Positions 1 to 18,840 of a stretch of DNA of 19,174 nt are shown in pieces. Location of the stretch: the NCBI RefSeq assembly GCF_963676685.1, contig NC_092349.1:63518924-63538097 (forward strand). Direction: 5' to 3'. The first letter of the stretch is position 1. Every line of letters begins with the position of its first letter. The translations under genes and the position numbers were made by a program. The notes beneath the pieces were generated by a model, which saw only the letters and a list, made by a program, of their open reading frames with translations, was not told the origin of the DNA and ran no database searches. The stretch is from Mytilus edulis. Its lineage: Eukaryota.

Positions 1-411
1 TGGATGATACTTGTTGAGTTTATTCACATAAAATATATTTTGTTGGTTTTGTAGTTCCCCCTTTTTATATGAAGAATTTCAAAGCCAATGAAGACAGCTT
101 TTTTTTTTATTATGCATAACTAATTTTAATGATGCATTTTTGTAAAATTTATTTTTGTCCACATTTCCGAATGTACAAGACATTCTTTTTTTTTTTAATA
201 TCCCTTTTATTTTGATATGAAAAAAACAAACTCAATCATTTCGAAGGCAAATTGTTAGGAAGATTCTATGAAGAAAAATCCCCAAAATTAAAAATAGTTT
301 GGAAGTACAAAACCGACGAAAACAAACAGTAATCCCGAATTACTTGTTACAAAGAAAAAAGATAGTAAAACCAAACTATACAGCGTGATTACCAAAAATA
401 CAAACCCAACC

Positions 412-781: not shown

Positions 782-1425
782 GGTGGTACACTACATATAG
801 ATTCCTCTGTAAAAATCAGCTGAAGGTTTAAATCACATTCTTTTGTTAAGGAAATATTAAAAGTTTCTCATTGATCAAAAGTAATGTTTTTGTCAAACCG
901 TTTATTGAGAGCGTCACTGACGAGTATTTTGTAGACGAAACGCGCGTCTGGCGTATATACTCAATTTAGTACTGGTATCTATGATGAGTTTATTTATATA
1001 TCAAATGATAAAGTTTGTGGTTCGCGTATTATTAGATTTTTTTTTATATTTTTGTCAAAATTTAATGAATTAATTTTAGCCAATGTGTTTGGTATCCTTT
1101 TAAACGTCCTTTGGATAAACTATTTAGTAGTTAATCAATTGTAAATATAGCAATACCACAGGGTTGTCCCTTTTCCCGTCTATTATACTTCATGTATAGT
1201 ATGGAATAGCTACATATAATCAATAGTAACAACATCTAAAAGGTAAACGGTATTTAAACCAGAATTCTTGATAACATTTGAAATAAAATTAATTTGTGCC
1301 GTTTAAATGAACATTTGTTTTTGTAATTTATATTTTTGTCAAAGGGTCAAAGTAAAATATTTCGTACAAATTTGAGGAAAATTAAACGAGGTAAATTGAT
1401 TTTACTTAAAGCATTTGGTACCACC
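782..1425. mobile_element. Composite non-autonomous element bounded by short inverted termini (ggtggtac / gtaccacc) and flanked by TTAA on both sides. It contains repeat module X, the hammerhead unit at 909-955 and repeat module Y.
   Basis: TTAA is at 778-781 and again at 1426-1429. The termini are ggtggtacac at 782 and ggtaccacc at 1417-1425. Modules X (about 800-900) and Y (about 1290-1425) recur contiguously at 8850-9115 without the hammerhead unit. Confidence 0.35.
909..955 (+). ncRNA. Type-I hammerhead ribozyme motif of the minimal Penelope-like-element/retrozyme kind, with a 2-bp helix III closed by a palindromic GCGC loop. The catalytic core is intact.
   Basis: Helix I 5' strand aGCGUCA is at 910-916. 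The core CUGAcGA is at 917-923, with a C at the variable position 7. Helix II is gua-uuuugua-gac at 924-936. GAAAC is at 937-941, the GCGC loop at 942-945, and the GUC cleavage triplet at 946-948. The predicted cut is after 948. Helix I 3' strand UGGCGU at 949-954 pairs with GCGUCA. Confidence 0.55.
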
Positions 1426-1559
1426 TTAATATGCTTCGTTTGCATGTAGTATACATTAATTTGTGTCTTGTAGACACTACAAGGAATATCTATCTTACAA
1501 ATATAAATTAACTGTTAACAAAACTTTGAATTTTTTAAATATAAAGACTTTTCTACCTC

Positions 1560-1760
1560 AGGAATAGATTTCCTTAGCTGCATTTGTCAAAACTTTTGGG
1601 AATTTTTGGTCCTCAATGCTCTTCAACTTCATACTTTATTTGGCCTTTTGAATATTTGTTTATTCGAGCGTCACTAATGAGTCTTTTGTAGACGAAACGC
1701 GCGTCTGGCGTAAATATAAAATTTTAATCCTGATATCTATGATGAGTTTATTTATCAACA
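1560..1760 (+). repeat. Hammerhead-bearing short interspersed repeat unit (retrozyme or PLE-terminus-like), full copy.
   Basis: It shares extended similarity with 880-1010 and 11100-11235. Examples are tcctcaatgctcttcaacttcat against tcctctatgctcgtcaactttcat, and the downstream atctatgatgagtttatttat. Confidence 0.45.
1666..1712 (+). ncRNA. Second hammerhead copy from the same repeat family. Helix II is better paired (GUC/GAC), but the core reads CUaAUGA, a G5 to A change that probably inactivates it.
   Basis: The sequence gagcgtcaCTAATGAgtcttttgtagacGAAACgcgcGTCtggcgta is almost identical to the 909-955 copy. The surrounding repeat, about 1560-1760, also occurs in degenerate form at about 11100-11235. 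Confidence 0.45.
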
Positions 1761-2737
1761 AGTTGTACAGCAATTTTAAAATATGTGGTGTTGAGCTATT
1801 CGGCGATACTGACAGTTTTTATACTGACAAATTAACAGTACATTTAAGCCAAGCCAGTGCTACTTTCATTTTCGAAGTAACACGTCTTCTGATGGCTGAA
1901 AGTGTTTTGTCTATCAGCTCATAGACATATATTTTTTACGTGACCGTTATGTCATGAACGTTTTTTTATGCTTTCTCCTTGAAAATGGACCTGAGAATTA
2001 ACTTATAAGGAATGATTGTATTGATATTTCTATCTGTTCAAAATAACCTAGAAAATGTGGTGTAAACTTTAAAATAACCCGCTTTACGAGTTATTCCGTG
2101 TACATCTCATTTTTTATGTTTTTTCTTCATAGACAAAAGATGTATTACGATTCTTAAATGGCACACATTCTGGAATCGGTGTCACATAATATATAACAAT
2201 CTATCAAATATTTGAAATATGGGGTCCATCAATTTTAGTTTATAGTGCATTTTCTGAATTTAATGACCGTCATTTTTGAGACGGGCATATAATATCTTAA
2301 ATCCATCCATTAACTATATATATATTATAGTAAAATAGCACATTTCCTGAAGTGGTAATACATTCAATCTAATTTAAAACACATATGGAAAGTCCAAAGA
2401 AATTCATGAAATAGCAACAGTTACGCATATTATGAGTCGTTATTAATTTTTTGGGGGGTAAAAGTACATTCCACAAAGCTATATAATGGTATTACAGAAA
2501 CATATCTATTCATACTAGTTTACTAAGGATGACCTGCGATGTAACATTTTACCTATACATTGAATTAAAAATATGTCCAACTGAAATGTTTTACCCTGAT
2601 TAACATTTTGACCAAAACAAAATGGTGCAGCTATACAGAAGCTTACGTTACAGCAAAGACATGTAATGCGCATGCAAACTGAAAACGATTGATTTTATTT
2701 TTTATATATGTTAGCCATTACAAAATAACTCTAAAAA

Positions 2738-2790: not shown

Positions 2791-3487
2791 GATATACGTA
2801 ATTGTTGTATTGTAAAGAATAAGCTCAATTTTCTGATAAAGTGCAAATTGAAAAACATTTGTATTGTACTTTAAATGATTTATTTTTGATAAATGCTTAA
2901 ACGAGCGTGTATATAATACTAAGCTTTTAAGCGTTACTATGCTCTTTGTTTCTTACTTTCTTACCACTTTTGTCTTTATGGTACTCCAGTCTGCTTGATA
3001 ACCAGTAACACTCCTTAGTGTAAACATACTTTAGATTTCTTAGACGCTTTATACTTCTTTCTGCTTTAGACGGCTGATGTACATATGTGTCGTCAAAGGC
3101 TCATAGGTTAAACGCTTACAATATGTAACGCTTTTAGAATGTCCATTTGCTTATTTGGCAATTGTCTGCAATAACTGTAAGTTCAGAAATGATTTCACGC
3201 GCACATTTATAATCGTGATTCTTGCTTAAAGAACACAAATTGGTTTTAATCAATCAAATTTTAGAAAATGCAGCATACAAAAATGCTGTCACACTTAAAT
3301 ATGTTTTTTCTTATTTTTGCGTTTTAATCAAATTACAGTATTCACAATAATAAACTCGACCGAAAGACGTTCTGAATTTGCAGTAGACAAATGATGGCAA
3401 CAGCTTTGCTTGAGTCATAGCTTCTTAACACAAGTAAATAAAAAATCGAAGGCACTTCCTGTACAAAAAAATGTGTACTTTTTACAG

Positions 3488-3643
3488 GAAGTTGTGTATT
3501 ACGTCCTGTAGAAGGGGATACAACAAAATACAAAGTTTATTTAACCTCATCACGTGCTTCCGGTGAATTTAGATGCGCTGATGGAACACATTTTAATCAG
3601 GAAAAATGTTTATGTGATTGGCCACCAAGAAATAATAATTCAG
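3488..3643 (+). CDS. Internal coding exon, first resolved exon of the partial + strand gene. It encodes a cysteine-rich repeat: (G/R)SCVLRPVEGDTTKYKVYLTSSRASGEFRCADGTHFNQEKCLCDWPPRNNNS. This resembles the C-terminal half of a chitin-binding type-2 (peritrophin-A) domain.
   Basis: The acceptor is tgtactttttacAG at 3486-3487 and the donor is CAG|gtgata at 3644. Only one frame is open, starting at 3490 with two leading nucleotides. The motif C-x-x-G-x-x-F-N-x(3)-C-x-C-D-W-P matches the conserved CPxGLxFDx5CDWP end of ChtBD2 domains. The exon ends with one extra nucleotide, which is phase-compatible with the exon at 4174. Confidence 0.6.
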
Positions 3644-4173
3644 GTGATATATTATATTAACTATTAGAATAAGCGCCAAAAAATGAAAAAAATCTTGACC
3701 TAAATTTTATGTTCATCACCATCGTGATCGGATTTGTACATGGAAGAAATAAAGCAGCTGATATCATTTTATATCATAGAAATGGGAGCGAAATTAAAAA
3801 AAATCATCGTACGAAAATTTTAAGTTTTACCACCATCCGACGTGATCGGATATATAGGTTCAAATAAGATTGTCTCTTCGAAACTTACTTCAATCTTTCT
3901 ACTCTTCCTCCTCAATTGCTTGTTTTCCTTCTCTTTAATATTGATCTCTCCTGCTTTGTGCTTCTTTCGCCAACATTTAAAAAATATGAAACGTATGACT
4001 GAAAAGGGAACGTTAATATTGCTTAACAAAACATATTGGTTTATATAAGTATTAGGAATCTTGCTTTGAAGATATTTCACTACAATAAAGACAAACTACG
4101 TTTAACACCAACTTAAAATAAAGGTTTGCCCGAAATTGGTATGTGAACTGTCTTATTTATCTTTGAGCTACAG

Positions 4174-5689: not shown

Positions 5690-5880
5690 TTAATGCCGAT
5701 CACTTACTCATCCATAAAAGGGGGACGAAAGATACCAGAGGGACAGTCAAATTCCTAAATCGAAAATACACTGACAACGCCATGGCTAAAAATGAAAAGG
5801 ACAAACAGACAAACAATAGTACACATGACACAACATAGAAAACTAAAGAATAAACAACACGAACCCCACCAAAAACATAA
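5690..5880 (+). repeat. SINE-like interspersed repeat (ggggacgaaagataccagagggacagtcaaa...gacaaacagacaaacaatagtacacatgaca...), copy 1.
   Basis: It is closely related to 18712-18840 and partly to 9700-9760. Track ORF 5635..5838 lies inside it and is therefore not credible as a gene. Confidence 0.5.
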
Positions 5881-5976
5881 CCGTTTCGCCAAACTAAATA
5901 TAAAATTTTTAAAACAAAAAAATATTTAGCTTACTATAGTATTTTGTCTTGAGAATAAACTGAAGTTTCCTTTCAG

Positions 5977-6123
5977 CTTGTTTAACGTCACCAGACGCCG
6001 ACAGAAATTATTTCTCCCAATATATCCATGGATATGGAACAGTAAGACGACGTTGTCCAATTGGTACCCTTTACAATGACAGAGAATGTGGCTGTATTGA
6101 TTTAGCACCTGTAACAAGTATTT
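5977..6123 (+). CDS. Internal exon encoding the second cysteine-rich (ChtBD2-like) repeat: (P)CLTSPDADRNYFSQYIHGYGTVRRRCPIGTLYNDRECGCIDLAPVTSI.
   Basis: The acceptor is tttcctttcAG at 5975-5976 and the donor is T|GTAAGT at 6124. The repeat architecture is the same as in the exon at 3488: C-x24-26-C-x10-C-x-C with a conserved central Tyr. CPIGTLYNDRECGC aligns with CADGTHFNQEKCLC. The exon ends in phase 1, and the closing Cys (YC) is supplied by the next exon. Confidence 0.6.
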
Positions 6124-6738
6124 GTAAGTATTGATGAGTTGTAATACATATAAATGAACTATATGATCAACCTAGAGAACGGCTAAATGTTATTGATAAT
6201 TTGACTCGGTGAATTCGGATGACGGATGATACATACAAAGCAGGATGAGACGAGATACTTATCGTTTCAGCGCACCCGGTAGCGCTTCTTATGAAGTTTA
6301 TTTAATTTATATAATTTTGTTTGTAAGCCTAGGTGTATCGATACGAGATTTGAACTTCAGTTAAATACTGTTGGCTTAATTTTTCCAGAGCATTTCCTTG
6401 TATTGATGCCGCCATTTGGCTCTATGACAGGTGTTATCACTGAAGAGAACTCACTTGCTGTTTGTTATCATTATTATTATATCGACATTGAATCAGTAAT
6501 GCTCTGTTTTAATTTTTGCCAAAATAATGATGATATCCCGATGTATGTTTAAAAGCAAGTTGCATATGTCTGATATTGTTGTGTTGTAATATAATATAGA
6601 GATATGAATAAAAGGAGATGAGGCGTTTATTGAATGAGACATCATCAACCTAAAATAAATAGAACCAAAAAGACATATAGAAGTCACAGCGTAGACCTTG
6701 GCATATTGTATAGACATATCTTTTTGTAAACACGTTTT

Positions 6739-6958
6739 GTTGACCTCTAAAAGCGTCAGCTTATGTTGACCTCTAAAAGTGTCAGCTTATGTTGACCTCT
6801 AAAAGTGTCAGCTTATGTTGACCTCTAAAAATGTCAGCTTATGTTGACCTCTAAAAGTGTCAGCGTCAGCTTATGTTGACCTCTAAATGTGTCAGGTTAT
6901 GTTGACCTCTAAAAGTGTCAGCTTATGTTGACCTCTAAAAGAGTCAGCTTATGTTGAC
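6739..6958. repeat. Minisatellite with a 26-bp unit, gttgacctctaaaagtgtcagcttat, in about 8.5 tandem copies. It includes one 6-bp internal duplication and a few point variants.
   Basis: The tandem periodicity is directly visible. The array is intronic and ends about 90 bp upstream of the acceptor of the exon at 7049. Confidence 0.9.
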
Positions 6959-7048
6959 ATCGAGTTTCATTGACGTATTCCCACATCTCATTTAATAATT
7001 TTATATTTTGTTTGGTTTGAAATTCTTAAATCAGTTCTTCAATTTCAG

Positions 7049-7407
7049 ATTGCAGACCAGAAATATATTTAGACTTTGATAGTAAACCAATTATAGATAA
7101 TGGGGGCACAAACATTCCCATTGGTAATAATGGTCACGTGGATTCTGTTGCTAACGCCGGTAGATTTAACGGTATCGGACAGTTAACAATATGGATGTAT
7201 TCAAACATTGACTTTGGACAAAAATTGACAATAAGTTTGCGTTTCTACGATTTCCCAGGAGGCCCGGATGAACAAGTATTAGTTTCTAATTGTATGGATA
7301 ATGAATTAGGTGCTGTTGAAATTGCATTAGCGCCAAGAAATAAAGAAGTTATTTTTAGAGCAGATACAGTTGCTAGTGGACCTGCAGAAATCCGATTACC
7401 ATATAAG
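7049..7407 (+). CDS. Large internal exon starting (Y)CRPEIYLDFDSK... and running to ...AEIRLPYK. It encodes the N-terminal two thirds of a LamG/ConA-like jelly-roll domain.
   Basis: The acceptor is tcttcaatttcAG at 7047-7048 and the donor is AAG|GTAAGC at 7408. The frame matches track ORF 7138..7497, which carries on into the intron after the donor. The exon starts with two nucleotides that complete the TAT (Tyr) codon begun by the previous exon. The alternating hydrophobic beta-strand pattern (LTIWMYSNIDF, LTISLRFY, VEIALAP, VIFRADT) is typical of a ConA-like fold. Confidence 0.65.
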
Positions 7408-8849
7408 GTAAGCAAGCAACAAGAAGTTAGGGTCTACATATATTGGCAACTATTTTTAACATTCAGTGAAAGTTGCCATTTATGGGATTCTAGGTAATAA
7501 CAGAGGCAAATGTCAGGTTTGTTTTATGAAAATAATCTGAATAAGTGATCACACTAGAATTATGTAAAATAGCCTTAAAAGATGAAGGTTGCTTTTACTC
7601 AAATTTTAAATTAGAACGTTTATATATATTTATATTCATCATTATGCAAACTATTATAATAAAAAACGTAACCGAAATTAAAAAAAAAATGAATAAAGAC
7701 CTTGAACATACAAGCAGACAGCCCTATCACCATATCAATGTCAAACAGTGCGAAATTGCGAGCACACCTGTTGTTAGCAATGTGTCCTCAGAAAATTTCC
7801 CAAAAGTAGTTTTCGTCGGATTGACATGTATAGTGTTTTGCTATTTGATTGGGGACTTTCCGTTTTAAATTTTTCTCAGAGCTCAGTATTTTTGTGATTT
7901 TACTTTTTATATGTTGAGAGTGTTTGTTCTCATGTTCCTGACATTTCCCACAACACATACTCAAACCCTAATTTTAGTAAAGCCTTTGTTTTAAGTCATT
8001 ACCCTCCTAAATTTACAAGTTGTCGCATTTAAAACCTTAACCTTCTGACAATTACTAACATTTTCTTGTCAAATGTGTGCACTTCTGAAGCCTTTTTTTG
8101 TTAGGAAAAATGTAGTATTTTCCGAACAAATAGTTGAATAGGTTGTTTGATGTTTTTGTTGTTGTTTATACGAAGTCTATAGCTGTATTGTTTATATAGG
8201 GGTTTAAATTGAAATTTATAGAATAATAACATATGTTTTGTTGTTTTTTACGTAAATAACTTCTTGTTTATATGATAAGCCTGCATTGCTTTGTAAGTCA
8301 TAAACAATGTACGATAACTATTGCTTTAGTCATGTTGGTATCAATCATTTGTGGGTTTTTATATGTAACGTTCAGAGGAATCATTCATGGTCCGGTTTTC
8401 GTAGTTTTAATGACTGTCACCACCAAAACCGCTTTAACGTATTTAAATCAACACGAAATAAGAGCAATCATGAATTCTTCCCACGGTGTTATAATCGTAT
8501 CACTTGTATTTCTATTTGAATGATGTTATTTTAAATTTGTGATTTTACTGACTACCTCGGTAGCCAAAATTTAATTTCTGTCGCTTTTTAAGTTAACATT
8601 GTTTAACATTCTCAAAATAAGTCTACCCTGTTAATTTGTTTTGTTATCTTATAGATAATAAACCGTATGTGTTAAACTTGAAGTAAATTTTATTTGTAAA
8701 TTGCTTTATTTTTATTTCAGTCTCATGGCCTATGAAACGTTTAAAAAAAGTATAACAATAATTCTAAACTCTTATGTAAATTCACAAAGAGGAAGTCCAT
8801 AACAATTTACAAAATCAAACATTATTTATCAATTTAACAAGTGAAAACA

Positions 8850-9115
8850 ACTACAGGGAGATTACTCTGTAAAATCAGCTAAACTTTTTAATTACACTGT
8901 GTTGTAACGGAATATTAAGCTTCCCAATGATCAAAATTAGTATTTGTCAAACTGCTATATAACCAGTGTAATTTTTCTGATGAAATATTTGGTTCCAATT
9001 TTTTGAAATTTTTATATTTTTGTCAAAGGGTCAAAGTAAATACTTTGTCAAAATTTTAAGAAAATTAAACGAGCCAAATTAATTTTAGTTTAAGTGTTAG
9101 GTACCGCCTTAAATT
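8850..9115 (+). repeat. Second copy of repeat modules X and Y, contiguous here, ending ggtaccgccTTAA.
   Basis: ctctgtaaaatcagct...atgatcaaaa...tttgtcaaac aligns with 805-900. atatttttgtcaaagggtcaaagtaaa...gaaaattaaacgag...ggtaccgccttaa aligns with 1318-1429. Confidence 0.45.
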
Positions 9116-10112: not shown

Positions 10113-11099
10113 GTAAAATCAAAGTTTTATATTGTGTATAGAAATTATTAAGATTCTGTAGCAGATTAAAGAACTTAGTTCCAGTTTTATATATGATGAA
10201 ATAAGTCAAATCACATCAAAGTTTGAAGATGTCACTGTGTCACAGTGTACCTCGTGTAATATATCGACTAATCTTTATCTCTTCAATGTCAATATCAAAC
10301 TTATCTGATAGTTAGCAAATATCACGAGACACTGTTTTGTTTTGTATTCAATATATCTAAATAGGGTCTTATCATTATGTCATTATGCTAAATTTCTTTA
10401 TAATTTGTGTTATCTTTAAATGAAATCCAACATCAACTGCTTAATTTTCTATGGGTACAACTCTGTGTAGATGGATTTACATCATATACAGTAAACTTTC
10501 TATACACTAAATAATCGCACACACGATTTTTCTTGAGGTGGCCGTAGTCGAACTGGTGACCAGTAGATTATATATCCTTGTTAATACACTCAATGTCGCT
10601 ATGAAAACAAAGAAAGCAAAGACTTAGGTTGCTGATTAAAGCATTCGGTGAAAATTTGAAATACTCTACCGAATCGATTTCCAGTCTACAGTTGGATATA
10701 TTTATTGCGTACTGTGATGCTTTGCATGACATTTCTGTTTAACGAGAATAGTATTTCAAAAGAACACAATTCTTGTAAGTGATTGTCAATGCCGTTGTAA
10801 ATTTTCGGCCATGTCATATAACGTTGCTTTTTTGATAGTTAGCCATCACTTGACCTTTTTCTGTGTTTTAGGGTGTTAACTTTGATCTTATTATCAACAA
10901 AACACCAAAGGGTGTGAGATTGAATATGTGCACATTTATATGCAGACCAATACATTTTCAATAACAAGCAAAAAGCTGATGTTTTTAAATCTTTATATCA
11001 TAATAAAAGATTAACTGTTTTTCCAAATTTTGCATATTTCGGAATAATTTGATGTTCTACCCAATGAATAGATTATAGATGAATGTTGCAAAACATTTT

Positions 11100-11235
11100 T
11101 GAATTGTATGTCCTCTATGCTCGTCAACTTTCATTGACCTTTTTCAATTTGAGTGTCACTTATTAATTAAGCGAAGACAAAACGGGCGTCTAGCGTGCAT
11201 GGTATCGATAATGAGTAAACGATGATAACACATAT
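11100..11235 (+). repeat. Degenerate copy of the hammerhead-bearing repeat unit. The ribozyme core is destroyed.
   Basis: gagtgtcacttattaattaagcgaagacaaaacgggcgtctagcgtgcatggtatcgataatgagt aligns with 1664-1750, with many substitutions in CUGAUGA and GAAAC. Confidence 0.4.
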
Positions 11236-12029
11236 TCTAAAGATTAAAAAACCATTTATGAACATTGCTTTAAAATATGAAGCAAACTTTATGTCGATAG
11301 AAGGCAACAATAATTACTATGTTATATGCTAATGTACTTCAATTATAACAACTTTACCGCCCATCCTCCAATATAATGGTTATACAGCAACCATCAATCA
11401 GTAAACCAATCTTATAAAACAGTGGTATAACACCTGAACATTATATAAACTAAAATTATCAAAATGGACCCTAGTTGCCATAGGTTTAAAGTTTTTGGAA
11501 TATTTCGATTTTAAGACGTTTTTTTTATTGTTATTTACTTTATAGCCATGAGGTACTACGTTTAGATAGAATTATTTTTTCAATAAAACAATAGTAGGAA
11601 TTAAACAAAAATGACAAAAAAAAAAGAAAAAATATATTATTAAATGAAAATTAAATCTATCGCATACAAGATTGTGTAACATTGAAAATCAATCTAACTA
11701 AGAAAATACTAATCGAGATCATTCTTGATGTAACGGAAAACAAGAGGAAACATAAATAACAATTCCCATGGTATACTAACTTGTCCTACCTATAAACCAT
11801 CTCTAATGAAGCATAATGTGACAATTCATGTAAACTGTCGCTATATCATCCATCTTTATTCGACATTATAAGGTTTAAAGCTACATAATGGAATGTAATT
11901 AGATAGTCTAATACTTTTTTGTTTTTTTTACTATCATATCATGTATTACATTATAACATTAGTCAAGAATTTCGTTAGATGTTATCGAACTTTTCGCATT
12001 TTGGCCTTCTTACTATTTTGGTCTTATGT

Positions 12030-12062
12030 AGACCAAACACGCGTCTAACTTATAAGCCTGGT
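12030..12062 (+). repeat. 5'-truncated hammerhead-repeat fragment (helix II, cAAAC, acgc, GUC).
   Basis: gtcttatgtagaccaaacacgcgtctaac resembles gtcttttgtagacgaaacgcgcgtctggc. Confidence 0.3.
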
Positions 12063-12889
12063 ACATTTGACAACTATTAACAAACAAACAAAACACAATA
12101 TCAAAATACTCAGAATTAATAACTAGGATTATGATATAGTAAGAAAACGCCTTCCCTTTTATCTTATCTTAGTTAAAAGTAAAAATAACTAAAATACCAA
12201 ACTCCGAGGAAAACTCAGAACGAAAATTTTCTAGTCAAATCGCAAAATCAAAAGCTCTAAGACATCAAACGAACGGATAAAAACTGTCATATTCCTATCT
12301 AGGCATTTATGAAAATTGAAAATAGTTGATTATACAAGGATCTTTTAGCTTAAAACACCTGGTTTAATCCACTATTTTTTACTTTAAAAAAAATATGCAA
12401 CTGTCATACAATTGAGCTATCCTCACAATTGTTAGTAGACAGTTGCATTAAATTCCATTACATTTACAAAAATTGTGCGAACAAACAAATAGACATAAAA
12501 GGTACACATGTTAAAAATAGGGGTACAACAGTCAATATTTAATAACTTATTCGATTCGTGTTTCAAGTTTTTCTAGGATCTCTGAGTTAAATAAAGGCAC
12601 CAAAAAATATAAAAGGTGTATGACAGTACTAAATGAGCAAGGTTCATTCATTAAAAAACATTTAACAGACTGACATACTAATTTTTATTTGATCTCTTGA
12701 TCTTAAACTTAGAAATGATTATCTATTCGTTGTCATGATCTATCAAATTGACTTTTAAACATGTATTTTAAAACAGACATCATTTGCAAATGGACTTTTC
12801 AAATTTCAAATACACTTATAAAAGAGCAAAAACTATTTTTGGTGCTTTTGACACTTATGATTGCATGCTACGCCCGTCGCGTTTTCTAA

Positions 12890-13410
12890 GAATAAAATTC
12901 GATAACTTCTCAATGTCATATCAGAAATTTATAAAAATCCAAAGACATGTCAACTTGATAGATATAAATCAGTCACCAAAGTTTAATGAAAACTAGCACT
13001 TTGGGAATATTGTCCGAAAACTTGAAAATCACCCAATCGAATTGGAACTTACAGTAATAGATACGAACAATTCACCAAAATGTTAGGAAAACTGCCCAAA
13101 GCATTTTTGAGTTAATGTCCGAAAACTGGGAAATCTTGTTTCTTGTAATGAATAAAACCCCATAACTTGGAAACGTAAAATCTAAAATTTGTAAAAATTC
13201 AAAGGATGCTCATGTCAATATATATAAACAATTCATTATAGTTTCTTGCAAATTGGTGAAAGCGTATTTTGAGTTATTCTCAGAAAACTGGAAAATCCCT
13301 CTTTTTGTAATGAATATAAGCACAAAATCGAAAACATAAAAATCTAAAATTTATAAAAAACGAAAAGGAGCTATTGTCAATAGATATAAACAATTTGAAC
13401 GGTTTTACAC
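12890..13410. repeat. Satellite-like tandem array of three to four diverged units of roughly 110-190 bp (gtccgaaaactggaaaatc ... tgtaatgaataaaa ... aaaatctaaaatttgtaaaaa ... aaaggagct-atgtcaatatatataaacaatt).
   Basis: Blocks recur starting near 12905, 13012, 13118 and 13280. Track ORF 12784..12996 overlaps the first unit and is probably spurious. Confidence 0.55.
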
Positions 13411-17479: not shown

Positions 17480-18287
17480 CTGAAATATATATAAGATTTA
17501 TCAAAATACATATAGGATGTGTTGTCTCCTTGAAAGATACCCCATTTTCATTCTTAATTTTATATAGAAAATTGTTAAAATATCCAGATAAAAAAGCTAT
17601 CAAAAAGTAGAATGTGTGTAAAGATATGAGTTAAATGACTTCTAAAGAACAAATGTTGCTTTATACTGACTAAAACAAATGGTTAAATGGTCAAGTGTCG
17701 AAAAAGGTTTTTTAGGTGAAGTAGCTAAGGTACTAATCCCTACGTGGAAATTTTATGCTTTACGATATCAGATAGAATCAGGGACAAAAACTATAAAAAG
17801 AAATGCAATGAATATTTTTCTTGTGAAATTTACCACGTTACAGGGTGCAAATAAAGATACACGTTCAGCATACCCTTCTACTAAAGTTACACATAGTCTT
17901 TGTTTGGAACGTGTGGTTCTTTGGTTTTTGCCAGATTCGACTAAGGTTATCGAATCTAATACTGTGGATTTCTGATTGAGTGTATTGTTTGAGGGGTATT
18001 GCTATCTTATCTTGTTATTATGCTATGTTGTTAAACTATGGCATCTGTTTAAGAGCAGAATTTAGGGCTCACAAGTATATACAGCTCCGGCACAGTATGT
18101 GTATGTGCATGATCAACATTAAGAATCTATAATATAATGGTTTCTGCAGATTTCTGTCACTCATATTTGTTTTTTATTTTCTATAAATTTTTCATTCGAA
18201 CATTTTAGTAGGATTTTAAACCCCTAACGTTTATTGTCATAGCAAAATTTGACACAATAAGACCCTTCAACGTTGTAGACCTTGTAA

Positions 18288-18345
18288 ATTGATTTGAGTG
18301 CCACAAATGAGTCTGATGAAGACGAAACATGCGTTCTCTCATCTT
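18288..18345 (+). repeat. Divergent hammerhead-like motif (CaaAUGA-guc...gac-GAAAC-augc-GUU). The core is degenerate. It lies in the intron of the - strand gene.
   Basis: gagtgccacaaatgagtctgatgaagacgaaacatgcgttctc. The helix II and GAAAC spacing is conserved, but conserved core positions are mutated. Confidence 0.3.
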
Positions 18346-18711: not shown

Positions 18712-18840
18712 GTTCAAAGGAGGGGCGAAAGATACCAGAGACACAGATAGAAAACAAACTGACAACGCAATTGGCCAAAAAAAGGAACCAGACAAATAAT
18801 AGTACACACGACGGAACACAAAAATCTTAAGACGTAAGCA
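18712..18840 (+). repeat. SINE-like interspersed repeat, copy 2.
   Basis: ggggcgaaagataccagagacacag...actgacaacgcaattggccaaaaaaaggaaccagacaaataatagtacacacgac aligns with 5710-5840. Confidence 0.5.

Follow-up and report, generated by a model that had tools for sequence, protein, structure and literature searches.

What are the five hammerhead-like motifs that lie within 19,174 nt of the Mytilus edulis genome (NCBI RefSeq assembly GCF_963676685.1, contig NC_092349.1, positions 63,518,924 to 63,538,097; this whole stretch is called the window below), and could any of them still act as a ribozyme? In this work, we have used direct reading of the sequence, covariance models, energy calculations and blastn comparisons to address this question. 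Our results indicate that, taken as a whole, the motifs are best explained as relics left by insertions of a known retrozyme, the mussel non-LTR element, a reading that we consider very probable. The ribozyme, the repeat that carries it, its self-cleavage and its circRNA products are already known, having been published for Mytilus in 2020. Cervera and de la Peña (2020, NAR 48:5054) cloned and tested a non-LTR retrozyme of M. galloprovincialis, Mg353 (PMC7229834). The mussel family comprises about 5000 hammerheads in repeats of ~350-390 bp, the Mg353 construct with its single hammerhead self-cleaves co-transcriptionally with a kobs of ~0.1 per min, and the retrozyme circRNAs are abundant on northern blots (PMC7229834).

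The first-pass annotation of this DNA had placed two near-identical hammerheads at 909-955 and 1666-1712, both in the order 5'-helix I strand, CUGAnGA, helix II hairpin, GAAAC, GCGC, GUC, helix I strand-3', and direct reading confirmed this layout. The two copies share 88% identity over 59 nt and 87% over 99 nt. The hammerheads proper are:

911-954, + strand: copy 1 hammerhead, type I (RF00163, 30.4 bits, full model)
1668-1711, + strand: copy 2 hammerhead (RF00163, 24.9 bits; sequence read directly)

In copy 1, helix I is formed by 911-916 and 949-954 (6 bp, including two G·U pairs), the core box CUGACGA occupies 917-923, helix II and its loop 924-936 and the GAA 937-939. Helix III consists of the pairs A940-U947 and C941-G946 under a GCGC cap (942-945), so that the 2-bp helix III with a palindromic tetraloop described beforehand is borne out both by reading and by the RF00163 alignment. 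The GUC lies at 946-948, and cleavage is predicted between C948 and U949. Copy 1 had also been said to keep every invariant core position, with C at position 7, and this is correct (CUGACGA, GAAA, GUC): the conserved type-I core (C3 U4 G5 A6 N7 G8 A9; G12 A13 A14; A15.1; U16.1; H17) is complete. The third pair of its 4-bp helix II is an A926·G934 mismatch, however, and the A at 926 is found in copy 1 only among 14 aligned copies, the intact family members all having C at this place. Thus, of the proposed range from intact to decayed members, the decayed end stands, whereas at the other end copy 1 is only nearly intact. The ribozyme of Mg353 differs from that of copy 1 at two positions, N7 and 10.3, and in relative energies of the imposed hammerhead fold, the only energies compared, copy 1 reaches +0.7 kcal/mol against -5.7 for Mg353, which puts the helix II defect at 6.4 kcal/mol. 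Judged from its sequence, copy 1, if transcribed, might still cut after C948, and the mismatch in helix II probably slows any such cleavage.

Copy 2 has the same layout, with the core box CUAAUGA at 1674-1680, the GUC at 1703-1705 and C1705 as the equivalent of the cleavage site. The inactivating G5 to A change attributed to it was read directly as CUAAUGA; it lies at position 1676 and is the point at which the type-I core fails. This is also the one position at which the copy 2 ribozyme differs from that of Mg353. Because of this change, copy 2 should be inactive.

With cmscan, RF00163 (Hammerhead_1) matches both copies across model positions 1-45, including all three helices. Copy 1 gives an E-value of 2.6e-5 in a 951-nt search and 5.2e-4 in a search of the whole window, and copy 2 gives 0.0017 and 0.035, respectively. 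The gathering threshold of RF00163 is 34 bits, and at this threshold no match is reported for the window copies. A covariance-model score below threshold had been named beforehand as grounds for rejecting the motifs, and formally the 30.4 bits of copy 1 are such a score. It carries no weight as a refutation because family members with the consensus ribozyme, which belong to an experimentally active family, themselves score only 33.0-33.3 bits; the threshold therefore shuts out the whole active family. A search for the pattern CTGANGA-N6-30-GAAACGCGCGTC found a single instance in the window, and none turned up in 200 dinucleotide-preserving shuffles. Among the 14 aligned copies, standard pairs fill 91% of the cells in register, a value that falls to 20-48% once the partner is displaced by 1-3 columns. 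No pair is altered on both sides in these 14 near-identical copies, most of them picked by an exact 18-mer, so the helices are without covariation support within the mussel family; near-identity and this mode of selection make the covariation test uninformative. Thermodynamic folding favours the hammerhead in no copy, Mg353 included, and since an alternative hairpin has the better minimum free energy even in this experimentally active sequence, such predictions cannot be used to judge activity.

The identity of the elements was established by blastn against Mg353 and the 393-nt M. galloprovincialis circRNA consensus, both taken from the supplement of PMC7229834. The corresponding fragments are:

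909-997, + strand: copy 1 retrozyme fragment, hammerhead plus 48-nt 3' tail (93% over 88 nt, E 5e-27)
1485-1759, + strand: copy 2 retrozyme fragment, 5'-truncated (80% over 285 nt of the consensus, E 8e-62)
11000-11216, + strand: copy 3 retrozyme fragment (66% over 217 nt, to Mg353 26-240, E 4e-20; blastn match at 11000-11196)
12000-12082, + strand: copy 4 retrozyme fragment, second family variant (82% over 34 nt of the consensus, 12021-12054)
18289-18334, + strand: copy 5 retrozyme fragment (76-78% over 45-46 nt, E 1e-4)

In the numbering of the circRNA consensus, copy 1 (909-996) runs from 354 to 393 and then from 1 to 48. Copy 2 runs from 167 to 393 and then from 1 to 52, without the central domain (~53-166); its 1495-1753 segment aligns with Mg353 24-281 at 85% over ~260 nt (E 2e-70), and it is 79-81% identical to two copies from public metagenomes, L011 and L028. 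The M. galloprovincialis ribozyme reads GAGCGUCA-CUGAUGA-GUCUUUUGUAGAC-GAAAC-GCGC-GUC-UGGCGU, and helix III of Mg353 is the same as in the window hammerheads. Compared with this ribozyme, copy 1 differs by a C at position 7, which is allowed, and by the A·G in helix II, and copy 2 by the G5 to A change. On either side of the ribozyme, the published element and the window copies also share the upstream arm and the downstream tail (85-93% identity), and both are non-coding and low in GC. The loop variants TTTTG and TTATG match the two described in the supplement, HHR A and HHR B (PMC7229834). The repeat family in itself points to the genome of a mytilid mussel, probably Mytilus.

The three further, degenerate copies that had been listed in the first-pass annotation are real, as shown by their blastn matches to the published retrozyme. 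Against Rfam, E 5 is reached by none of them, their type-I core is broken at several positions and, judging by these lesions, all three are dead. In copy 3, which is old, the core box is CUUAUUA, GACGAAAC is replaced by GACAAAAC and GCGC by GGGC. Copy 4 bears the marks of the second variant, a TCTTATG loop and a TTTGATAACTATT tail, and is 78-80% identical over 62-73 nt to L011, L028 and L060; the 5' half of its hammerhead, comprising the helix I strand and the CUGANGA box, is deleted. Copy 5 has the core CAAAUGA and the loop AUGC, with GUC changed to GUU, and may extend upstream to ~18163, where blastn gives a weak match (18163-18257, 63%, E 0.05).

A public scan with the exact 18-mer GTAGACGAAACGCGCGTC returned 115 metagenome and prokaryote-genome loci, 7 of which are retrozyme copies (L001, L011, L024, L028, L031, L060 and L077), L011 being a tandem array with 355-nt spacing. 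The other loci lack similarity to the retrozyme consensus at an E-value of 1e-5, and the 18-mer presumably occurs in them by chance, in unrelated sequences that are mostly bacterial; the viral collection scanned with the same 18-mer gave no matches. The GC content around the window copies is 28-30%. Open frames in the retrozyme consensus are short, the longest having 63 aa, and those across the tail are without a start codon. Open frames in the window are likewise short. The window copies share with the published element that they are non-coding, low in GC and without LTRs, primer binding site or polypurine tract. A protein-coding element around the motifs had been named beforehand as a ground for refutation. 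The repeats match the non-coding retrozyme, and none of the ten frames scanned, selected from a stop-to-stop listing, has a Pfam match above threshold. By eye, none of the ORFs of the window resembles a reverse transcriptase or a GIY-YIG endonuclease. Two other observations concern the coding potential of the window: a weak candidate for a chitin-binding-domain exon lies at 3442-3657 (+) and a coding-like frame at 7030-7494 (+), and the ORF at 7138-7497 has homologues in Logan, ENA and JGI assemblies.

None of the five window copies is in tandem or full length, and tandem units of ~350-390 bp with one hammerhead each, which characterize the published family, do not occur in the window; its copies are solo, 5'-truncated and without ~53-166. 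The hammerheads of copies 1 and 2 lie 757 nt apart with other repeat DNA between them. We considered whether these copies are the ends of a 757-nt unit or of a decayed trimer, and rejected this, since what lies between them resembles other repeats rather than the retrozyme. Searches for the central domain (consensus 45-175) beside all the regions tested gave no match (z <= 1.3). The features in the neighbourhood of copy 1 are:

790-1104, + strand: unrelated interspersed repeat around copy 1 (self-blast)
874-910, + strand: left arm of a tentative target-site duplication, an imperfect direct repeat flanking copy 1
1000-1036, + strand: right arm of the same (local alignment)

The interspersed repeat pairs 790-898 with 8850-8952 (77% over 109 nt, E 4e-16) and 1006-1104 with 8978-9113, the matches on the 3' side being weaker, and no hammerhead is recognisable in the paralogue at 8850-9113. 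That this repeat and its paralogue form a diverged retrozyme subfamily was also rejected: only an 'ATAGATT' anchor aligns, and consensus 45-175, aligned locally with the flanks, scores no better than shuffles. The direct repeat flanking copy 1 has a score of 12, compared with a shuffle mean of 7.7 (sd 1.6), and 2.1% of 1000 shuffles reach it. No flanking direct repeat was found at the other four copies. The assignment as a target-site duplication, seen at one copy in five with p ~0.02, is tentative.

The ends of the solo copies follow a common rule. In eight of them (three in the window and five in public contigs), the 3' ends fall 44 to 52 nt after the cleavage site (+48 in copy 1), and the flanks beyond are unrelated. 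Tandem copies, in contrast, continue past the tail into CACTGGGTCGATGCC. The 5' ends vary, lying at consensus ~167 in copy 2, ~354 in copy 1, ~229 in the L011 array and within the hammerhead in L060, and a short extent from ~354 to +46..52 is common to copy 1, L024 (minus strand) and L001. Shared 3' ends together with variable 5' ends in these eight copies suggest reverse transcription primed at a fixed site.

In the published cycle, transcripts of tandem genomic units (~350-390 bp each) are cut by the type-I hammerhead 3' of the GUC, an RtcB-type tRNA ligase closes the units into circles and the circRNAs accumulate; an autonomous element, with Penelope-like elements (PLEs) as the favoured candidate, would then supply the reverse transcriptase that copies them back into DNA (PMC7229834). 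According to a 2020 review, the mobilising partner could not yet be deduced, as no conserved motif was known in the repeats. The window copies would be products of the copying of circRNA into DNA and not sources of circRNA, and no window copy can release a unit-length circle, as none has a partner ribozyme one unit away. We suppose that target-primed reverse transcription could start from a fixed site in the RNA, and that early termination would leave the variable 5' ends. A possible model, which we put forward tentatively, is that integration is primed at a single site, 44-52 nt beyond the point of hammerhead cleavage (...UUUAC(AC)), with variable 5' truncation, that the mobilising reverse transcriptase recognises hammerhead and tail together as its 3' element, and that stubs like copy 1 are the commonest product.

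How else could these motifs be explained? The solo copies might represent a separate linear, SINE-like element whose hammerhead sits ~50 nt before the 3' terminus; the circular tandem retrozyme would then be derived from this element or related to it. All eight solo copies have one 3' end and variable 5' ends, as in SINE and LINE insertions, the central domain is absent from every window copy, and copy 1, L024 and L001 share a nearly equal short extent. However, the L011 array and L060 run from the tail into the central domain, and the tail is therefore also internal to the circular unit, and 260 nt of copy 2 align collinearly with the cloned retrozyme. Fixed priming on a circular template leaves the identical pattern, so the solo-copy data by themselves cannot separate the linear from the circular model; overall, we find a linear element rather unlikely. 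A greater distance separates the data from an origin in the pseudo-LTRs of a PLE, of which the motifs would be minimal hammerheads. PLEs do bear type-I hammerheads close to the 3' end, frequently lose their 5' part and are found together with retrozymes in mussels, and their mode of insertion resembles the fixed 3' end and 5' truncation described here. Their hammerheads are nevertheless devoid of helix III and loop 3, whereas in the window copies helix III is present, with 2 bp and a tetraloop, the flanking sequence aligns with a non-coding retrozyme over ~260-285 nt, and no reverse transcriptase or GIY-YIG endonuclease frame was seen in the 19 kb. This origin is thus largely refuted, and we give it very little probability.

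Copy 1 could alternatively have been domesticated to cut a host transcript, lying on the same strand as possible downstream exons. Its catalytic core is complete, the five fragments, the 3442-3657 candidate and the 7030-7494 frame are all on the + strand, and in amniotes type-I hammerheads located in introns are known to have a part in mRNA biogenesis. Yet copy 1 bears a private destabilising change in helix II and is one unremarkable motif among the ~5000 of its family, and five fragments out of five on one strand would occur by chance about once in 16 times; we regard domestication as highly improbable. The least probable proposal, to the point of being negligible, is that AT-rich DNA happens to resemble the hammerhead consensus at these places. 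The scores below the Rfam gathering threshold would fit with it, but the E-value of copy 1 over the whole window (5e-4), the absence of the pattern from 200 shuffles, the near-identity to an experimentally active ribozyme and a homology that reaches hundreds of bases further all oppose it, and the blastn homology to the published retrozyme refutes it. Relic insertions of the mussel retrozyme thus continue to be our preferred reading.

As for the place of these motifs among known hammerheads, the architecture had been likened to that of both PLE termini and retrozymes, and only the second half of this comparison holds, since helix III is absent from the minimal PLE type. The window hammerheads are of the 'canonical' retrozyme type. 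The minimal hammerheads of PLEs and Terminons have in common with them that they are type I, belong to metazoan retroelements, lie near the 3' end of the element and suffer frequent 5' truncation (PMC4209133), and PLEs are the proposed mobilisers of retrozymes. In the minimal motifs, helix III and loop 3 are missing, helix II is longer and helix I shorter, cleavage in vitro is poor and the location is within pseudo-LTRs that flank an ORF for a reverse transcriptase and a GIY-YIG endonuclease (PMC4209133), none of which holds for the window copies. The hammerheads of the newt and axolotl satellites (retrozymes) are also type I with a very short helix III and a palindromic tetraloop, but have no sequence in common with the mussel ribozymes outside the core. 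The amphibian motifs need two tandem copies for efficient cleavage, the monomer reaching 6-22% in one hour. The mussel ribozyme cleaves as a single copy, and the hammerheads of invertebrate retrozymes have been set against the dimer-dependent ones of amphibians (PMC7229834). Hence, action as dimers across tandem copies, as proposed earlier, is not required in this family, Mg353 cleaving with one hammerhead, while the description of the repeats as non-coding, non-autonomous and ranging from nearly intact to decayed is upheld.

Plant LTR retrozymes are likewise non-autonomous retroelements whose hammerheads release circRNA intermediates. They differ in having type-III hammerheads, LTRs, a primer binding site, a polypurine tract and a high GC content, with 4-bp target-site duplications and mobilisation by Gypsy elements. 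The hammerhead repeat of Schistosoma is SINE-like. Its sequence is unrelated to the mussel retrozyme. As far as Ferbeyre et al. (1998) are cited in PMC6155905, the Schistosoma repeats are, as here, interspersed and non-coding with an active type-I hammerhead. The Schistosoma ribozyme has the classical tertiary contacts between loops 1 and 2. In the mussel ribozymes, the nucleotides conserved for these contacts are largely missing (PMC7229834).

What do these relics mean for the mussel family? The value of the locus as a discovery is small, the Mytilus ribozyme and its circRNAs having been published in 2020. Since the active family misses the gathering score of Hammerhead_1 by about 1 bit, default scans under-report thousands of mussel hammerheads. 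Most genomic matches of this kind are dead, truncated stubs and not genes for circRNAs. Our data suggest that the common 3' end of the solo copies is a small addition to the published work; if true genome-wide, it would provide a handle on the enzyme that mobilises animal retrozymes. If priming does occur at a fixed site, a comparison of the hammerhead-tail module with the 3' ends of Mytilus PLEs or LINEs would identify the autonomous partner.

The five fragments of the window belong to an already known and experimentally characterised retrozyme family, which is represented here solely by decayed and truncated insertions. Two Mytilus galloprovincialis references, the genomic clone Mg353 and a 393-nt consensus of cloned circRNAs, appear in the supplementary material of Cervera & de la Peña (2020, NAR 48:5054, PMC7229834). 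Both were compared with the window by blastn, and the matches assign the copies to this family:

909-996, copy 1: consensus 354-393 then 1-48, 93%
1495-1753, copy 2: Mg353 positions 24-281, 85%, E 2e-70
1485-1759, copy 2: consensus 167-393 then 1-52, 80%
11000-11196, copy 3: Mg353 positions 26-240, 66%, E 4e-20
12021-12054, copy 4: consensus, 82%
18289-18334, copy 5: consensus, 76-78%

Copies 3 to 5 bear out the three further degenerate copies proposed in the first-pass annotation, whose overall reading, on blastn and on the Rfam Hammerhead_1 model (RF00163), was essentially right: the feature is a known retrozyme hammerhead. The GC content of the window is 28-35%, its open frames are only short, and a search for tRNAs in it found none. 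Judged by its repeat family, the window most likely stems from a mussel genome.

The ribozyme published for the family is GAGCGTCACTGATGAGTCTTTTGTAGACGAAACGCGCGTC/TGGCGT (PMC7229834). Direct reading of copy 1 gave the elements below, in the order that had been proposed for 909-955 and 1666-1712, with the two-pair helix III and its GCGC cap:

911-916, first helix I strand
917-923, core box CUGACGA
924-936, helix II hairpin
937-939, GAA
940-947, helix III (A940-U947, C941-G946), capped by GCGC at 942-945
946-948, GUC
949-954, second helix I strand

Copy 2 has the same layout, except that its core box at 1674-1680 reads CUAAUGA, that is, the G5 to A change (at 1676) already noticed in the first reading. 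The window contains a single instance of the pattern CTGANGA...GAAACGCGCGTC, which was absent from all 200 dinucleotide-preserving shuffles. In a permissive Rfam search copies 1 and 2 covered RF00163 over the whole model with 30.4 and 24.9 bits (E-values: 951-nt search, 2.6e-5 and 0.0017; whole window, 5.2e-4 and 0.035), while the search of the window at the gathering threshold of 34 bits gave no match. The first-pass annotation had proposed that a score below threshold would refute the motif; this criterion has no force here, because copies of the active family that carry the consensus ribozyme also fall below it. Scanning public metagenome and prokaryotic genome contigs for GTAGACGAAACGCGCGTC gave 115 loci, only seven of which match the retrozyme consensus; the remaining loci lack such a match and presumably share the 18-mer by chance, in DNA that is unrelated and for the most part bacterial. 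One of the seven, L011, is a tandem array with 355-nt spacing. The consensus-ribozyme copies at L011, L028 and L031 reach 33.0-33.3 bits, likewise short of 34, so that the curated threshold excludes the whole mussel family by about one bit, and default Rfam annotation would overlook this experimentally active family.

The M. galloprovincialis genome holds about 5000 type-I hammerheads of two closely similar variants, usually set in repeats of about 350-390 bp (PMC7229834). Action as dimers, which the first reading had suggested, goes back to how canonical metazoan hammerheads were described in 2014 (PMC4209133) and is not required in the mussel family, where a genomic construct of one unit, hence one ribozyme, self-cleaves co-transcriptionally at ~0.1 per min (PMC7229834). 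Invertebrate retrozyme hammerheads, with a 2-bp helix III and a tetraloop, are active alone, whereas those of amphibians need two tandem copies (PMC7229834). The minimal hammerheads of Penelope-like elements, unlike the window copies, have no helix III at all and are therefore of a different kind (PMC4209133). CircRNAs from retrozyme repeats are abundant in mussel tissues; circularisation is ascribed to an RtcB-type tRNA ligase, not to the ribozyme, and the circles are proposed to be copied by a reverse transcriptase that an autonomous element supplies, with Penelope-like elements as the favoured candidate (PMC7229834).

No copy in the window amounts to a functional retrozyme unit. The central domain (consensus about 53-166) was undetected beside the regions tested (local alignment z <=1.3), and the hammerheads of copies 1 and 2 are 757 nt apart, separated by another repeat family. 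Copy 1 does keep every invariant core nucleotide, as had been claimed, with a C at position 7, a permitted base that is in fact the Rfam consensus. At position 926 the alignment shows A in copy 1 versus C in the 12 copies whose ribozyme is recognisable; the A turns the third of the four helix II pairs into an A·G mismatch, and the energy of the imposed hammerhead fold is +0.7 kcal/mol for copy 1 versus -5.7 for Mg353 and copy 2. From the mismatch and this modelled energy we infer that the copy 1 ribozyme is weakened, not necessarily dead. Even the active Mg353 is predicted by minimum-free-energy folding to form a different hairpin instead of the hammerhead, so this folding is no guide to activity. 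No compensatory pair was found among 14 aligned family ribozymes, nor would any be expected, since they are recent copies of one master sequence and most were picked by the exact 18-mer. Changes of G5, as in copy 2, are strongly inactivating in classical hammerhead mutagenesis. Copy 3 has several core positions changed, the 5' half of the ribozyme is missing from copy 4 and the GUC from copy 5; the hammerhead core is described as highly conserved (PMC6155905).

Several other features accompany these fragments. An unrelated interspersed repeat (790-898 resembling 8850-8952; 1006-1104 and 1318-1429 resembling 8978-9113) shows 77-83% identity between members; copy 1 sits in the middle of the member at 790-898/1006-1104, and in place of copy 1 the paralogue (8850-9113) carries AT-rich sequence of 25-70 nt that cannot be aligned. 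A further dispersed family (5716-5857 and 18716-18840, ~13 kb apart) shares several collinear 31-47-nt matches at 72-84% identity, and a 162-nt unit is repeated at 13098-13395 (1.8 tandem copies, 80% matches). At 6738-6958 lies a tandem repeat of a 26-nt unit (TGTTGACCTCTAAAAGTGTCAGCTTA, 8.3 copies). The Logan contig L116 (SRR29152243, 95% identical) covers 5850-6773 and 6923-7872 and is unaligned over most of this array, so array length may differ between copies or individuals. The coding-like open frame at 7030-7494 (+, 155 aa stop to stop) has no Pfam match and eight homologues (64-97% identity) in Logan, ENA and JGI assemblies, two of which share a single 1.8-kb contig; the frame may represent an exon or belong to a multi-copy element. 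Another frame, 3442-3657 (+), on the strand of all five retrozyme fragments, may be an exon; it has a weak partial match to chitin-binding Peritrophin-A (CBM_14; 20.8 bits, cut-off 22.1, E 4e-4).

We mapped the point at which each copy ceases to resemble the full unit. All eight solo copies terminate at ...TTTAC(AC), +44 to +52 nt past the cleavage site:

window copy 1, +48
window copy 2, +52
window copy 4, +45
L001, +52
L024 (minus strand), +46
L028, +46
L031, +44
L077, +44

Beyond these ends each solo copy has its own, unrelated flank, while the tandem copies (L011 twice, L060) run directly into CACTGGGTCGATGCC, the central domain. The 5' ends differ, lying at consensus ~167 (copy 2), ~354 (copy 1), ~229 (first unit of L011) and within the ribozyme (L060). 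By our calculation, the chance of eight ends in one 9-nt span is of the order of 1e-10, for random placement in a unit of ~353 nt or more. Among the public contigs, L077 (CALHGI010000550.1, 'uncultured cyanobacterium' MAG, GC 53%) carries its mussel-type 'ribozyme plus tail' fragment at 200-280, near the contig start, and is probably chimeric or contaminated with host DNA. The metagenome contig L024 carries opposed fragments at 1799-1816 (+) and 2643-2660 (-), ~830 nt apart, reminiscent of the inverted layouts reported for Penelope-like insertions.

Target-primed reverse transcription characteristically leaves a constant 3' end and truncated 5' ends, and the pattern of ends suggests that retrozyme reverse transcription is primed at a fixed site; such priming would commonly leave 'ribozyme plus tail' stubs like copy 1. 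On either side of this copy lie the arms of an imperfect ~37-nt direct repeat (874-910 and 1000-1036), whose score is reached by 2.1% of shuffles; the repeat may be a target-site duplication, and no flanking direct repeat was found at the other copies. The shared 3' terminus is the only part worth pursuing: according to a 2020 review no conserved motif is known that indicates the mobilising element, and so this end, although seen in few copies (n=8), may offer a modest new handle on that element.
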